Assembly (NCBI GenBank): GCA_000995965.1
Contig: LBYD01000001.1
Location: 207,265-271,264 of the forward strand
From: Candidatus Moranbacteria bacterium GW2011_GWC2_40_12
GTDB lineage: Bacteria; Patescibacteriota; Minisyncoccia; Moranbacterales; UBA11712
Reading direction: 5' to 3'
Length of the DNA: 64,000 nt
Shown: positions 43,031 to 52,486 of the stretch, in pieces
How the letters are laid out: the number at the start of each line of letters is the position of its first letter
Position numbering within the stretch: position 1 is the first letter of the stretch
Notes under the pieces: generated by a model
Databases searched by the model: none
What the model saw: the letters and a program-made list of their open reading frames with translations, nothing else
What the model was told of the DNA's origin: nothing
Translations under genes and position numbers: made by a program

Positions 43031-44198
43031 CGAAAAGTGATTTTGTTCTTTTTTTATCGCCTCTCCGGATAACGAGGCAAATTATCAATCATTTAGGAGC
43101 TTCCAGTATCACCCCAGCAGAACCGGATTTCTGCTGGTTTTTTTTGAAAATTAATCTTTTAAAATTTTTCTTGCTTCATTTTTCCACCTTCTTTGTTGAC
43201 AAGAGCCAAAAAACTGCTAAAATCAGAACTACCAGAGAACTCCCTTTCTTTGGTGGTGCTTGCGGAGCGCGGATATTGGAGCTGGAAGTCAACCTCCCCG
43301 TTAAGCGACAACTAGAATCTCTCTTGTCCGCGACTCCGCCTTATTTCAAAAGTTTCAGTTCTTTATTAGAACCGAGAAAATTCTCGGCAAAAAATTCTCA
43401 ATCGGATAATATTATCCAGGGCTGGCGTTCGTTCAGTTTCAATTTCTAGAATCAAATCTAGCAATTATAAAACGGCCGCCAGCCTCCCCTTCCTTACAAT
43501 CTGTAAGGTTTTTTATTTCTCGAAAATTTTCTTTTGCGGTTTTTTTGTTGCCGTGGTAGATTATGAACATCAGTGTTTGAGGGAGGTGATGATGAGGAAC
43601 GCTTTGGTAAGGAAAGGCTTCGTCTAACGACGAGCAACACGAAACTTCACCCAGCCGCCGCTGGAAGAATCGTGGATATCATTCAAGAATTCAACGACTT
43701 ACTCCGGCGGCGCAAACTTTTTCAGTTCTTGAGAAATATACGGGCTTTGCCGGGGAAAACAAGGTTGATACCCATACTCCTTTCAAGTTTTCGGTGCTTC
43801 TTCCTTTTTTCCGGCAGCCCGCCAGCTCTTCGTGAGGAGCCTCCAGGCGATCCGCGGCATACCCCTTCCGCGGAAAAACCCGGGCCTGATCCACACCCGC
43901 CAACGCTTCAAAGCTGGTTCCCCCCGGCAAAGGCGGTGAGAGGCTCTTCACGAACCCTTTCAAAAAGTTTGCAGATCCCTGGCGTTTTTTGCTCCCGGGG
44001 GAGAAAAATCGGTCGAGCGAAAAACGCCAAAACCACTAAAGGGCCCCGCAACTCGGGGAAGAGGTGACCAATGGACTTCCCGGCAATTTTTGCGGAAGAA
44101 CTAAGGAGGACGCCTATGAGGAAAAGCACAACTGAGATAACTGGCGCGTTAATCTTCAAAAAATATAACTGAAACAAAAGCACCCCGGGGCTCATGCC

Positions 44199-44226
44199 AC
44201 GGGGTAATTTTTATCCTAAGATCCGA
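44199..44226. repeat. 27-bp direct repeat with REP-like palindrome (left copy) ttttatcctaagatccgatcttgggat
   Basis: Identical to the copy at 44925-44951. Contains the palindrome cctaagatc-c-gatcttgg. Confidence 0.7.
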
Positions 44227-44242
44227 TCTTGGGATAGAGATC

Positions 44243-44917
44243 TTAGGATAGATTTTCAAGAATTAGCTTTTCGTCTTCCTTTTTTAACTTCGCCGCCTCA
44301 ACATTCTCTTTTGCAAAATTTTCATATTCTTTATTGTTTTTAAATTGGCTCCAAATCACTTCTCCGTTACATATATCGCTTTTACTCTTTCTTAAGAAGT
44401 TCGACAGACTGCTCCAGGGGTATTTTTTCGCGTCCGAAATATTGTGCACTTCGGCGTTGCAATTTACGTAGGCAGAAAGATAAAGAAGATGATGAGTCGA
44501 TTTGATGAGGCTAGACTTGCACTTCCCCTGAAACAAGACTCCACTGCGATTATATTTTTTGTTGAAATACATTGTGAATCCTATCCCTACTCTTTGCATA
44601 AATCTTTCAATACCATTTTTTGCAAGTTGTTCCAGGACAAAGTGATAATGATTCGGAAGCAGAGAAAAACAAACAATTTTAACCAGCGGATTTCTTTTCC
44701 TAAGATCCGATCTTAGGAAGGTTTCTACTGTCGCTTTTGGATAGGTTTTTTTGTGATCGCGCCAGCGTATCATGAGACCGTCTTGCTCGTCGTTCATAAG
44801 GCGCATTGAAAGCAAAAAGCGACGATAATCAAAATCATCTAGAAATATTTTTCTTTTATCGATTCCTCTATTGAAAATGTGGTAGTATTGATCTTTAATA
44901 AATTGCACTTTTCGCAT
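44243..44917 (-). mobile_element. REP-associated tyrosine transposase / IS200-like Y1 HUH transposase
   Basis: HUH motif LLPNHYHFVLE, downstream catalytic-Tyr region LLYLSAYVNCNAEVHN, and C-terminal YPWSS, characteristic of the TnpA_REP/IS200 family. Flanked by identical repeats. Confidence 0.75.
44698..44718. repeat. third copy of the palindrome (tcctaagatccgatcttagga) inside the transposase CDS
   Basis: Read directly. In-frame, encoding FLRSDLRK. Confidence 0.6.
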
Positions 44918-44956: not shown

Positions 44957-46342
44957 TTATTTACGCAGGGCTTCGATAGGCGAGAGTTTTGACGCTTTCC
45001 AGGCCGGATAAATTCCAAAAATGATGCCCGTGACAGCTGAAAAGCTGACCGCCACCAAAATTGTGCTCACTGGAACAGAGAACTGGAGAAAAAAACCAAG
45101 CCGGACCAAAAAACTGTTGAGAAGATACGTCGCCGCGATGCCTAAAATGATTCCCACGGCCCCCCCCAAAAGCGTGACAATGACGGCCTCAAAGAGAAAC
45201 TGGCGCAAAATCCCCGAACTTGAAGCGCCCACTGCCTTGCGAAGGCCGATTTCGCGCGTTCGTTCAGTGACCGCCACATACATGACGTTCATTATTCCCA
45301 CTCCGCCAACAATCAAGGAAATCGATGTGAGCGCGAGAAGAAGATAGTTTATCGTCCCGAAAACTTTGTCGATCATCGCTTTTCCCTCTGCCGCCGACAT
45401 GACGACAAAATCTTCCTTGTCCGGATCGGTGATATCATGCTCCTCGCGCATCACGTCGCGGATATCCACGGCCGTTTCTTCGATGCGCGAAGTGTCTTTC
45501 ACTTTGAAAGTGATAAACTGGACATAGTCAATGCCCATCAATTTCTTGTTGAGTGTTTTGAGAGGAATATAAATCGCGTCGTCAAAATTGAAAAATCCGG
45601 CCGCTCCCCGCTCGCGAACAACTCCGATGACGCGATAGCTTTGGCTTTTGATTTTGATATTTTTTCCGACCGCGTCCCCTTCCCCAAAAAAACTTTTTTT
45701 GACGCCCGCGCCGATAACCGCCACTTGAGCCGCGCCAGATTCGTCGCCCTCCGAAAAAAAAGCCCCATCCTCGAGCTGGATCTGGCGGTCAATTTCAGTG
45801 TAGCTGGGATTCACTCCGAAAAGAATCACCCGTTTATTCACGTTGGAATAGCTCACCAGCTCCTGGTCAATATTTCCAGCGCTCCAAAGCTTTATATTCG
45901 GGATTCTGGCCACTGCTTCCGCGTCTTTCTCTTTGAGCGTTGTGATTGCGAGGCCCGTCCCCCGCCCGGCAATATTTTCTGATGATGTTTCCGAGACTCC
46001 CGGCACTTTCACCTCAACTTGGACATAATCCGTTCCGAAAACCTCGATTTGCCCCAGGACATAGTTTTTGAGCCCCGCCCCGCCTGCCATCACAATGATG
46101 ACGGAAGTGATCCCGATCACGATTCCCAGCACCGTGAGCGCCGTGCGAAGCATGTTGGCGCGCAAGTTGCGAAACGCCAAACGAAACACCACTGTCCACT
46201 CGTGGGGAGAACGGATAGTGAGATGGAGAAGGGAGTGGAAAATATTTTTTATGCGAGATAAACTTTTCGCCATAAATATGTTCTCGTAATTTGCAATTGG
46301 CAATTTCGCTCGCTCTGCCTGCCGGCAGGCAAGTCGCTGCAA
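44957..46342 (-). CDS. ABC transporter permease, MacB/FtsX family
   Basis: FtsX C-terminal helices plus a periplasmic MacB-like domain. Confidence 0.75.
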   Translation of the reverse strand: MQRLACRQAERAKLPIANYENIFMAKSLSRIKNIFHSLLHLTIRSPHEWTVVFRLAFRNLRANMLRTALTVLGIVIGITSVIIVMAGGAGLKNYVLGQIEVFGTDYVQVEVKVPGVSETSSENIAGRGTGLAITTLKEKDAEAVARIPNIKLWSAGNIDQELVSYSNVNKRVILFGVNPSYTEIDRQIQLEDGAFFSEGDESGAAQVAVIGAGVKKSFFGEGDAVGKNIKIKSQSYRVIGVVRERGAAGFFNFDDAIYIPLKTLNKKLMGIDYVQFITFKVKDTSRIEETAVDIRDVMREEHDITDPDKEDFVVMSAAEGKAMIDKVFGTINYLLLALTSISLIVGGVGIMNVMYVAVTERTREIGLRKAVGASSSGILRQFLFEAVIVTLLGGAVGIILGIAATYLLNSFLVRLGFFLQFSVPVSTILVAVSFSAVTGIIFGIYPAWKASKLSPIEALRK

Positions 46343-51198: not shown

Positions 51199-52083
51199 TC
51201 AGTCTATTCTTTCCCACGTATTTAGCTCCGGATCATATTCGAATGAAGCTATGAAATCATCCACGTTTTCGTATTTGTCTGTCCCTGTTTTGAGTTCAAA
51301 ATCGTCTTCTCCCATTTCCCAGTATGCCAATGACTTGATGTCATATCCGCCTCCGGATTTCGCGGCAGTTTCGAGCAGAACTTTTTTGGCAGTATCTTCT
51401 TCTATCTCAGAATTCTCGTCATCTTCGATAGAATCATAGTATTCCACATAAACATTGCGCTCGTCAACAAAATCCACTGTGAGGACAACCCACTTTTCAT
51501 ATTTCGCTTTTTGGGGCACGACGGAATTGATATTGGTCGCCAGCCAGTTCATAAGCGTTTTTCTGCTCTCAATAAGGTCTTTATCCGTTTCCGCTCCCGC
51601 GCATTTCACCTGAGATACGGCAATTTCATTTTTGGCCGCGTTTTTGAGGCCCTGCACCTCCACCTCGCGATCCTCGAAATAATCTAGCTTGAAAAGGTCG
51701 CTTCCGGTCAGTCCGGAACTTTCTGTCCCTTCGATATAATACCGGTAGCTTTTGAATTGGGAAGGCGTGTCGTCCGGATAAACTTTCCGAAGTTTTCCGG
51801 AAACATTTGACGTATCGCCCGACTGATCCGCAATTTTGAGCCATTCTCCTTTTTCGCAAATGGCGTTGTAGTCAGTTTCGTCCTCTTCGCTGAAGATTTC
51901 ATCGTCTGCCCCATCGCCCGAAAGAATGCTTTCGAGGCTGTCAGCGGCATTTTCTCCGTCTTTAGCTTGAGGTCCATTCGGGAGATTTTTCCCCCGGTTG
52001 CCGAAGCTTTGGTACCAAAGAAATCCGGCAAAGATGAGAGCGACTGCGACAATCCCTCCCCAGATGAGTTTTGATTTGTTCAT
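51199..52083 (-). CDS. secreted acidic hypothetical protein
   Basis: N-terminal signal anchor. No recognisable domain. Confidence 0.4.
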   Translation of the reverse strand: MNKSKLIWGGIVAVALIFAGFLWYQSFGNRGKNLPNGPQAKDGENAADSLESILSGDGADDEIFSEEDETDYNAICEKGEWLKIADQSGDTSNVSGKLRKVYPDDTPSQFKSYRYYIEGTESSGLTGSDLFKLDYFEDREVEVQGLKNAAKNEIAVSQVKCAGAETDKDLIESRKTLMNWLATNINSVVPQKAKYEKWVVLTVDFVDERNVYVEYYDSIEDDENSEIEEDTAKKVLLETAAKSGGGYDIKSLAYWEMGEDDFELKTGTDKYENVDDFIASFEYDPELNTWERID

Positions 52084-52155
52084 GTGTTTTAGTTTTACAT
52101 ATTATATATGAAGTATAAAGCATATTTGTTTTTTTTCAAATGCCTCCAGCATTTG

Positions 52156-52338
52156 AGCCCACGAGCAGATTCGAACTGCTTACCTGCTCCCTGCCATGCC
52201 TGCCCGCAAAGCCTGAGCCGATGACCGGATTTGAACCGGTGACCTACTCCTTACCATGGAGTTGCTCTACCAGCTGAGCTACATCGGCATTATGCGAAGG
52301 CAGGCGGGGAGCTGCTCTGCCAAGTGAGCAGCACGGGC
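52156..52338 (-). other. interrupted tRNA-like gene: 5' half 52338-52308, 3' half 52190-52156, 117-nt insert containing tRNA-Thr
   Basis: 5' half GCCCGUG-CU-GCUC-ACUUGGCA-GAGC-A-GCUCC. 3' half GGAGC-AGGUA-AGCAG-UUCGAAU-CUGCU-CGUGGGC-U. Acceptor and anticodon stems are complementary. A flanking GCCUGCC/GGCAGGC helix is present. Confidence 0.45.
52216..52288 (-). tRNA. tRNA-Thr (anticodon GGU)
   Basis: GCCGAUG-UA-GCUC-AGCUGGUA-GAGC-A-ACUCC-AUGGUAA-GGAGU-AGGUC-ACCGG-UUCAAAU-CCGGU-CAUCGGC-U. Confidence 0.85.
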
Positions 52339-52486
52339 ATGCTGTTTTTTTAGCCAAGTGCCGTGCCTAGCCGCAGTTTCAGTGGAGACGGGAACCGCAC
52401 AGGCGCTTCAACGCAAAAATATATTAGCACGGGAAAAAAAATTCAACAATATGGCGCGTTAGGCAATTTATTGCTATAATTTTGTC

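Follow-up and report, generated by a model that had tools for sequence, protein, structure and literature searches.

Background

tRNA genes, and their anticodon loops especially, are classic integration sites. In Archaea, bulge-helix-bulge introns and split or tri-split tRNAs are known from Nanoarchaeum equitans and Caldivirga maquilingensis; we know of no splicing endonuclease in the bacterial host studied here. GC-rich double-hairpin elements accompany mobile GIY-YIG open reading frames (ORFs) in Allomyces mitochondria, and synthetic 'home-and-rescue' or 'cleave-and-rescue' gene drives destroy an essential target while carrying a functional replacement. Two described systems are close to the present case. 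T4 SegB is a GIY-YIG homing endonuclease that recognises a tRNA gene sequence and spreads neighbouring tRNA genes (PMC2330249). In Patescibacteria, a divergent group I intron, missed by both RF00028 and ARAGORN, lies at position 36/37 of tRNA-Thr(GGU) (Nakagawa et al. 2026, PMC13011429). Here we analysed a stretch of 64,000 nucleotides of Candidatus Moranbacteria bacterium GW2011_GWC2_40_12 (contig LBYD01000001.1, positions 207,265 to 271,264; hereafter the window), in which a complete tRNA-Thr(GGU) gene lies nested inside an interrupted second tRNA gene.

Based on sequence comparison, we consider it probable that the interrupted outer gene is a dead former tRNA-Thr(GGU) of one allele (E), split by a 110-bp promoterless cassette carrying another allele (A), and that such invasion and replacement recurs in Candidatus Moranbacteria. 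In the literature searched, we found no description of nested tRNA genes, or of GIY-YIG genes with tRNA genes, in Patescibacteria.

Results

Anatomy of the nested locus

Loci are designated by L numbers, the window being L001. The nested unit consists of five parts, given here in their 5' to 3' order on the minus strand:

52308-52338, minus strand: 5' half of the outer tRNA-Thr gene, a probable pseudogene (positions 1-31, i.e. acceptor, D arm and anticodon-stem 5' strand), closest to allele E
52289-52307, minus strand: left arm of the cassette, CCGCCTGCCTTCGCATAAT, identical in L029 and differing at 3/19 positions in L051, each time after position 31 of a different outer allele
52216-52288, minus strand: inner intact tRNA-Thr(GGU) of allele A, presumably the functional gene (ARAGORN; Rfam tRNA 71.4 bits), found as a plain resident gene in L063
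52198-52215, minus strand: right arm of the cassette, CAGGCUUUGCGGGCAGGC, an imperfect inverted repeat of the left arm (GCCUGCC/GGCAGGC and CGCA/UGCG)
52156-52197, minus strand: 3' part of the outer gene, likewise a probable pseudogene (residual anticodon loop AUGGCAG, anticodon-stem 3' strand, variable loop, T arm, acceptor strand and discriminator U), matched by nhmmer over profile positions 31-74 (E=2.7e-7)

Read on the minus strand, the outer 5' half (52338-52308) is GCCCGUG CU GCUC ACUUGGCA GAGC A GCUCC and the outer 3' half (52190-52156) is GGAGC AGGUA AGCAG UUCGAAU CUGCU CGUGGGC U. Seven pairs join the two acceptor strands (5 Watson-Crick and 2 G-U), and the anticodon stem is complementary throughout. 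All these letters and pairings had been given in a preliminary description of the locus and proved correct, as did the spacer of 117 nt between 52308 and 52190, the intact tRNA-Thr(GGU) that it holds and the loop AUGGCAG (52197-52191) that remains once the insert is removed, in which the anticodon is GGC and position 38 is G. The insert itself falls between outer positions 31 and 32 and measures 110 bp (left arm CCGCCTGCCTTCGCATAAT, tRNA, right arm CAGGCTTTGCGGGCAGGC), of which 73 nt are tRNA and only 37 nt are not; its junctions read ...CUCC|CCGCC...GGCAGGC|AUGG.

The inner gene is called as Thr(GGU) by ARAGORN, scores 71.4 bits against Rfam RF00005 (gathering score 29) and has its cloverleaf as minimum-free-energy fold. 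At gathering thresholds, Rfam identified three tRNAs only in the whole window, and at E<=10 nothing credible further between 52050 and 52500. In the intron-aware search proposed in the preliminary description, ARAGORN in intron mode (0-200 nt, relaxed threshold) returned the inner gene only, leaving the outer gene uncalled in place. When the two halves were joined, the seven bases ahead of the 3' half being taken as the loop, ARAGORN called them as a tRNA with anticodon GGC. A profile of the tRNA-Thr(GGU) alleles detected both outer halves in place (3' half, E=2.7e-7; 5' half, E=0.04); the joined halves reached 56 bits, compared with 75 bits for the inner gene. A cloverleaf is thus recognisable in the outer gene after removal of the insert, given the ARAGORN call and the profile score. 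Folding the 183-nt region, which had also been suggested there, gave two nested cloverleaves as the minimum-free-energy structure (-79.9 kcal/mol, z=-2.7). An exact-pattern scan with the 22-mer of the outer D arm and anticodon stem, covering one genome per species, gave no match.

A 387-bp region around the tRNAs is base-for-base identical in seven contigs from JGI, ENA, NCBI and Logan assemblies, and the sequence of the flanking 294-aa protein (51199-52083, minus strand) is identical on the JGI, ENA, NCBI (GCA_001784895.1, GCA_001785005.1) and Logan contigs. Because these 387 bases agree in seven loci from separate assemblies, we do not regard the locus as an assembly artefact.

Relationship of the outer gene to resident alleles

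Some 60 orthologous loci were collected through homologs of the flanking 294-aa protein. The gene order tRNA-Thr(GGU), 294-aa gene, rpmG, tRNA-Trp is kept across relatives. At least six tRNA-Thr(GGU) alleles occur at the orthologous site, with a distribution that does not track the host tree. The joined outer gene is identical to allele E at 65/73 positions, as opposed to 49-58/73 for the other alleles. Allele E is intact in L013, L042, L057 and L067, so that the continuous form of the outer tRNA, for which a search in related genomes had been advised, does exist at the orthologous locus; the closest relative, L059, has a single plain tRNA.

The resemblance of the outer gene to a tRNA exceeds chance, because both halves are hit by the profile, the joined halves are called, the identity to allele E is 65/73 and the region folds as a nest. 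The two halves are considered to be one gene, since they break at the same point (31/32) and share a G-C pair at 27:43. Eight bases set the outer gene apart from allele E. Four are single substitutions (U8C, A9U, A38G and U36C, the last giving anticodon GGC), two make acceptor pairs G-U, and two replace A27:U43 by G27:C43; this last compensatory change spans both outer halves, where intact E alleles have A-U.

Several invariants of functional tRNAs are missed by the joined gene: C8 and U9 stand where U8 and A9 are expected, anticodon GGC is combined with C3-G70 on a Thr-type body, and position 38 is G. For the inner gene the minimum-free-energy fold is the cloverleaf; for the joined outer gene it is not. 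We read it as a pseudogene because U8 is lost, A9 has become U, the anticodon is GGC, A38 has become G and the cloverleaf is not the most stable fold.

The inner gene belongs to a different allele, only 54/73 identical to the outer one. In L063, allele A is a plain resident gene directly 3' of the conserved promoter, and its flanks show no relationship to the cassette arms. In L059, whose flanking protein is 74% identical, the same two flanking genes enclose one plain tRNA, placed directly behind the promoter; because this closest relative is plain, the nest is derived and specific to the lineage of the window.

Recurrence of the cassette

In L029/L030 and in L051, the same left arm (19/19 and 16/19 identical, respectively), with allele A behind it, is again joined directly to position 31, though the outer alleles are different ones. 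Between these loci, 8-14/31 positions vary in the outer 5' half versus 2-5/93 in the arm and inner tRNA (Fisher p = 2e-4 to 1e-6). L001, L029 and L051 are not sisters in the neighbour-joining tree of the flanking protein, each grouping with a lineage of another arrangement; insertion at one shared site, after position 31, with such a patchy distribution is one of the patterns by which homing cassettes are recognised. The acceptor of the outer half in L029 (GCCCAGG) is that of the resident allele in its sister L060. L029 keeps the right arm (AGGCATTTGCGGGCAGG) and its outer 3' half is unrecognisable; L051 has lost both the right arm and the outer 3' half. As the cassette persists where the outer 3' half is decayed or gone, the outer gene seems dispensable once the cassette is present. 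These comparative data favour the first of the three readings offered in the preliminary description, i.e. a tRNA paralog destroyed by an inserted mobile tRNA-Thr, given a diverged copy of the resident allele and the same left arm at the same position elsewhere.

A different arrangement was observed in L038:2086-2400, L068:1-300, L064:150-400, L065 and L066, where an element of ~300 nt, rich in hairpins and with GCGCTGCTTCCGC / GCGGAAGCAGGCGC as long-range arms, occupies the site and the tRNA is represented by decayed pieces only. No intact tRNA-Thr(GGU) was found within 2.5 kb in these five loci (L038, L064-66 and L068), in which the gene may have moved or be dispensable, and a tRNA-Thr 5' half sought in L038 and L016 was not found in either. 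Separately, L038:59-194, ~2 kb upstream of the tRNA-Thr site, matches the Rfam LOOT RNA (RF03000) at 73.8 bits.

Cassette arms and solo palindromes

The preliminary description had noted a GC helix next to the outer anticodon stem and likened it to the clamps of archaeal split or intron-bearing tRNAs. The complementarity itself holds (GCCUGCC, 52305-52299, with GGCAGGC, 52204-52198). The archaeal likeness fared less well: judging from the sequences, the clamp appears better explained as two halves of a palindrome that occurs alone in this and related genomes. Joined directly, the arm cores GCCTGCC and GGCAGGC give GCCTGCCGGCAGGC, which is found in the window as follows:

46317-46330, no strand assigned: solo palindrome GCCTGCCGGCAGGC, i.e. 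the two cassette arm cores joined with nothing between them, lying between two ABC-permease (MacB-like) genes (1 exact match in the window, 0.00 expected)

The same 14-mer is present in L031/L062 and in L037/L038/L068, near tRNA-Trp. Among known copies, the GC palindromes cluster in tRNA relics and not genome-wide. The right-end motif occurs twice in the window (0.8 expected). As for CCGCC..GGCGG hairpins, they were rejected as a genome-wide repeat, the 6 in the window (1.75 expected) lying in unrelated places. Target-site duplication (AGCT at D-loop hairpins, TCTC at tRNA-Trp palindromes) was likewise rejected as a general feature, the tRNA being simply continuous once the insert is removed.

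The insert was also compared with known transposable elements. Imperfect inverted repeats (GCCTGCC..CGCA / TGCG..GGCAGGC) are present as in miniature inverted-repeat transposable elements (MITEs) moved by DDE enzymes, and the insert has no flanking duplication. IS200/IS605 (HUH) elements and REP/RAYT systems insert 3' of a fixed target of 4-5 nt, leave no duplication, and have subterminal hairpins and a Y1 transposase. In the loci compared here, insertions occur 3' of CTCC or TTCC (window, L029, L051 and L051 tRNA-Trp) and without duplication; the insert ends pair with each other and not as separate subterminal hairpins. A weakly Y1_Tnp-like ORF (E=0.003, below the family cut-off) lies at 44243-44917, 7 kb from the insert. 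Neither the cassette-junction scan nor the relic-hairpin scan of viral contigs gave a match, and blastn against phage genomes returned generic tRNA-Thr matches only.

Two observations concern this Y1-transposase-like ORF. In L013:1981-2320, a homolog ends ~30 nt upstream of an intact tRNA-Thr(GGU) of allele E. In the window, the ORF adjoins ~800 bp of GC-rich DNA (43400-44240) with no convincing ORF (a 164-aa frame being Pro/Arg-rich junk), several 14-15-nt inverted repeats and no Rfam match, which may be an unannotated structured RNA or an element end.

Layered relics around the tRNA-Thr gene

Three further features flank the nest:

52418-52446, minus strand: sigma-70-like promoter TTGAAT-17-TATATT found by promoter scan, presumably driving the whole nested unit; the block CGTGCTAATATATTTTTGCG..GAAGC is conserved
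52339-52406, minus strand: apparently the oldest relic, in which a decayed tRNA-Thr 5' fragment (GCGCCTGTGCGGT) is followed by an inserted hairpin (TCCCGTCTCCACTGAAACTGCGGCTAGGCACGG), what remains of the D loop (CACTTGGC) and a linker rich in A, beginning exactly where the tRNA of a plain locus starts
52137-52155, minus strand: hairpin CAAAUGC-UGGAG-GCAUUUG after the outer 3' end, overlapping the -35 box of a promoter-like site (52139-52112) of the downstream 294-aa gene

The hairpin is followed by no U-tract and was therefore not called a terminator. In the plain-locus relatives L011, L059 and L063, base 1 of the tRNA directly follows the conserved promoter block. The relic at 52339-52406 aligns with that of L024 (CAGGCACTTGGCTTAAAAAATAGCAC) and has the same build as those of L021 and L060. 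Such 5' relics, lying between the promoter and the intact gene, begin with tRNA positions 1-13, continue with a GC hairpin whose end is CA(A/G)G and with what is left of the D loop, and close with a short linker; they were found in L009 (twice), L021, L022, L024, L031/62, L033, L053 and L060. In all, about ten relatives have layered tRNA-Thr relics in which GC hairpins occupy cloverleaf loops. A second fully preserved nest, with three layers and the outer 3' part still present, occurs in L033, where the outer tRNA bears three insertions: two hairpins, at 13/14 and at 30/31, and between them, near position 23, a stem-flanked tRNA of allele F. In the loci examined, each insertion lies inside or borders on one of the three cloverleaf loops, and only dead copies were seen to carry hairpin or cassette insertions.

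A 3' relic was observed downstream of the intact tRNA in L042:2354-2450. Here a 62-nt hairpin insert containing CCGCTTCGTGG parts the beginning of the T stem (GAGGTCCGCGG) from the final 17 nt of the tRNA (AATCTGCTCATGGGCTC), i.e. a T-loop insertion in a dead copy. It should also be mentioned that L022 (DATGZC010000015.1) is deposited as 'Candidatus Bathyarchaeia archaeon', yet shows the full Moranbacteria gene order with bacterial-type tRNA-Thr and tRNA-Trp loci, and its contig is probably mis-binned.

GIY-YIG cassettes at the tRNA-Trp gene

A related structure exists at the neighbouring tRNA-Trp gene of several relatives, in the order relic 5' half, palindrome centred on TCGCGA, ORF of ~82 aa and intact tRNA-Trp. 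The ORF encodes a GIY-YIG nuclease by domain match (PF01541, E=2.6e-15). The structure was identified in nine distinct loci, namely in L008, L009, L010, L013 and L032, and through nuclease homologs in L069, L070/71 and L072, which have unrelated neighbourhoods. The loci delimited at tRNA-Trp(CCA) are:

L010, 3600-4075: tRNA-Trp(CCA) GIY-YIG locus
L008, 3526-4330: tRNA-Trp(CCA) GIY-YIG locus
L009, 3764-4270: tRNA-Trp(CCA) GIY-YIG locus
L013, 3767-4250: tRNA-Trp(CCA) GIY-YIG locus
L069, 1535-1932: tRNA-Trp(CCA) GIY-YIG locus
L070, 1425-1829: tRNA-Trp(CCA) GIY-YIG locus
L072, 1391-1824: tRNA-Trp(CCA) GIY-YIG locus

In L069, the relic half equals the intact tRNA-Trp copy over 36 nt; L008 displays two rounds at tRNA-Trp, and some loci have a relic 3' part downstream. 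From its sequence, this structure looks like a candidate homing cassette that would enter the anticodon loop and restore the gene with its own copy.

Sequence is shared between the tRNA-Trp and tRNA-Thr loci. In L051, CTGCCTGCTTGCGAATAT, homologous to the left arm in the window, lies between a tRNA-Trp 5' part whose last bases are CTCC and an intact tRNA-Trp. The 19-mer hairpin element TCCGCCAGAGGCGGACAGG of the L010 tRNA-Trp relic is identical in the L021 tRNA-Thr relic and has one mismatch in that of L060, the host proteins of these loci (L010 versus L021/L060) being only 40-42% identical.

Another ORF, of ~233 aa, was observed between rpmG and tRNA-Trp in L033:3714-4412 and L057:3440-4138 (also in L024, L042 and L046), running into the first tRNA bases. 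In L033 and L057 it matches an N-terminal helix-turn-helix domain only, the remainder matching no family; it could be a candidate for a second kind of nuclease at the tRNA-Trp site.

Discussion

Proposed course of events

In the course of events that we favour, a cassette made of an arm, a complete allele-A tRNA-Thr(GGU) and a second arm would have inserted between positions 31 and 32 of the resident allele E. The inner gene would then have taken over, transcribed from the old promoter (52446-52418), with the older relics and the outer 5' half forming a long leader removed by RNase P and the outer 3' half a discarded trailer; that the transcript is processed as leader, tRNA and trailer is presumed from this layout. 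Recurrent rounds would follow the same course: a cassette enters the loop region of a resident tRNA gene, destroys it and supplies a replacement copy, after which the displaced fragments would decay and acquire GC-rich hairpin insertions.

We infer active mobility of the cassette, by homing or site-specific insertion, rather than passive spread, and at tRNA-Thr the events would have been driven by a nuclease acting in trans or by an enzyme now lost. Possibilities for the mover are such a trans-acting or lost nuclease, an HUH-type enzyme, to which the weakly Y1-like ORF at 44243-44917 and its homolog beside tRNA-Thr in L013 may point, or breakage at the palindrome centre with capture of a tRNA segment. 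On a more general level, and with less than even confidence, we suggest that Moranbacteria may host a natural 'invade-and-rescue' family of palindrome-bounded cassettes, some with a GIY-YIG gene and some of ~110 bp, that would insert site-specifically into tRNA loop regions carrying a replacement tRNA of the same identity, repeated rounds giving rise to Russian-doll loci.

Alternative explanations

Several points weigh against recurrent invasion by a mobile cassette. The 110-bp insert contains no nuclease, transposase or recombinase gene, and none adjoins tRNA-Thr in ~30 distinct loci; its junctions in the window have no target-site duplication, and no defined end chemistry can be read from them. 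Since the palindrome is also found solo, it may have been there before the tRNA entered it, in which case the arms would not be element ends. Independent insertions could be mimicked by an old polymorphism sorted among lineages together with recombination, and the host tree is a neighbour-joining tree of a single flanking protein. Moreover, L038/L068 and L064-66 have no intact tRNA-Thr(GGU) at the locus, and the gene may therefore be non-essential, which weakens the 'rescue' logic. Finally, all stem changes of the outer gene keep pairing, either as G-U or as compensatory pairs, and leave room for a structural role of the outer fold in processing.

This preserved pairing relative to allele E also speaks for a functional outer tRNA, either with a very large, tRNA-bearing non-canonical intron or as a split tRNA whose halves, held by the GC helix, would be ligated or work as two pieces after RNase P and RNase Z cleavage. 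The region does fold as nested cloverleaves, and the joined halves can be called as a tRNA. Nonetheless, these two readings of the preliminary description did not withstand comparison, and we judge them very improbable. The junction is an internal loop of 2 nt by 7 nt without a bulge-helix-bulge, no group I core is present, neither group I nor any other Rfam family matched at E<=10, U8 is lost and ARAGORN in intron mode made no call of the outer gene. Ala identity requires G3-U70 and Thr identity requires U36, so that a GGC anticodon with C3-G70 suits neither. Most relatives keep 5' relics only, and the cassette is still there in L029 and L051, where the outer 3' half is unrecognisable and absent, respectively. 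Introns do occur in Patescibacteria tRNAs, also in tRNA-Thr(GGU) (PMC13011429), which counts in favour of a spliced outer gene.

The outer pieces might instead be chance remnants of a tandem array of three tRNA-Thr duplicates, the first having lost its 3' part and the third its 5' part. Many relatives with 5' relics upstream of an intact copy, and downstream 3' relics in L042 and L012, agree with such an array. We hold it to be improbable, given that one outer piece ends exactly where the other begins (1-31 and 32-73), that both are of allele E and share the private G27:C43 pair, that the inner gene, as a different allele (54/73), is no recent duplicate, and that the left junction after position 31 recurs with the same 19-nt arm in L029 and L051. 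Decidedly improbable, in our opinion, is the scar of a tRNA-Thr-carrying phage or integrative element that entered the anticodon region by an integrase and has since lost nearly all its DNA. It would suit the classic use of tRNA genes and anticodon loops as integration sites, and in L042 the 17 nt at the tRNA 3' end recur as a direct repeat 73 nt downstream; however, the window insert is surrounded by no core direct repeat, there is no integrase, both flanking genes are syntenic with plain loci, the viral-contig scans with the cassette junction and the relic hairpin gave no match, and the same 110-bp insert in L029 would not be expected from independent decay of a large element. As several tRNA-Thr alleles circulate in related populations, an assembly or binning error could conceivably have merged those of two strains; its likelihood appears negligible, all junctions being identical, with the same neighbours, in seven contigs (23-124 kb) from independent samples and assemblers. 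The general statement of the preliminary description that this is not an ordinary bacterial tRNA locus is upheld.

Implications

Each component of the proposed system is of a known kind, be it the homing endonuclease at a tRNA gene, the gene remnant that an invader leaves or the palindromic repeat. What appears new is their combination, in which a whole replacement tRNA is nested in its target, invasion would occur in repeated rounds and dead copies bear hairpins in their loops. If invasion and replacement indeed occur as proposed, tRNA genes in very small genomes would be no quiet housekeeping loci, being contested by group I introns, nuclease cassettes and palindromic mini-insertions. Destroying the target while bringing a spare copy would be a third way to harmlessness, beside splicing out (introns, inteins) and rebuilding the target end (integrative elements). 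The relic layers could be a readable record of horizontal exchange among uncultivated lineages, and the GIY-YIG proteins beside tRNA-Trp are candidate nucleases specific for a tRNA gene sequence. Nested and fragmented tRNA genes are also likely to confuse tRNA annotation and counts of 'missing tRNAs' in Patescibacteria.

Comparison with known systems

A group I intron is present at the orthologous tRNA-Thr(GGU) of five relatives, where the gene is split at 36/37 by ~190 nt:

L008, 1957-2219: tRNA-Thr(GGU) intron locus
L018, 2187-2447: tRNA-Thr(GGU) intron locus
L019, 2176-2447: tRNA-Thr(GGU) intron locus
L020, 2183-2448: tRNA-Thr(GGU) intron locus
L050, 2168-2432: tRNA-Thr(GGU) intron locus

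These ~190-nt inserts have group-I-like core motifs (e.g. AGAUACAGUCU) and a terminal G, are patchy on the host tree and escape both ARAGORN and Rfam (the latter run on the L008 insert); in all five loci they match the divergent group I intron described in this clade (PMC13011429). The window insert shares with that intron the clade, the gene and the anticodon arm. It differs in lying at 31/32 and not at 36/37, in measuring 110 nt of which 73 are tRNA, and in interrupting a gene that looks dead. Group I introns are marked by a P3-P9 catalytic core, a 5' exon whose final U pairs with G in P1, a terminal G and usually at least 190 nt. The window insert shows none of these: the core is absent, its 5' junction is not preceded by U and its last base is not G. 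It gave no Rfam match at E<=10, with the caveat that RF00028 also misses the genuine tRNA-Thr intron of relatives (PMC13011429).

With T4 SegB, where a nuclease gene beside tRNA genes brings about non-reciprocal replacement of a rival tRNA region (PMC2330249), the likeness lies in the relatives' GIY-YIG ORF, which follows a wrecked copy of tRNA-Trp and immediately precedes an intact one. A nuclease ORF in or beside the insert, as in a homing cassette, is thus seen at the tRNA-Trp genes of relatives, and none is seen in the window or at the tRNA-Thr loci examined. Unlike in SegB, the tRNA-Thr cassette of the window is devoid of any ORF, the invader sits inside the target tRNA with both halves left in place, the host is a bacterial chromosome and not a phage, and the relatives' GIY-YIG proteins are predicted nucleases.

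As in archaeal split and intron-bearing tRNAs, two halves adjoin a GC-rich helix extending the anticodon stem, and insertions occur at non-canonical positions in several loops. Instead of the archaeal 3-4-3 motif (two 3-nt bulges and a 4-bp helix), the window has 5-bp and 7-bp helices flanking an asymmetric 2x7 internal loop; moreover, the host is bacterial, the anticodon is non-cognate, U8 is missing and some relatives have no 3' half.

Integrative elements at tRNA genes (attL/attR) also leave partial tRNA copies beside an intact tRNA and keep the function of their target. They do so with a 3' direct repeat at both ends and an integrase, whereas here a whole tRNA is nested between 5' and 3' halves, and the insert is only 110 bp long, with no junction repeat, no integrase and flanking genes as in plain loci. 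Short, GC-rich, multi-copy palindromes and inverted-repeat ends, bordering mobile ORFs whose insertion replaces a portion of a host gene, recall REP/REPIN-like palindromes, MITEs and the double hairpins of Allomyces; the present palindromes differ from these in having no target-site duplication, in clustering in tRNA relics and in that one of them carries a tRNA as cargo.

If the proposed invasion and replacement is correct, the locus would represent a natural counterpart of engineered rescue-type gene drives. It differs from them in being a natural case, in having a tRNA as target and in that no nuclease is linked to the tRNA-Thr cassette; the likeness is a conceptual one, in that the target would be destroyed and a replacement carried, carriers would lose nothing and the element would be hard to remove.

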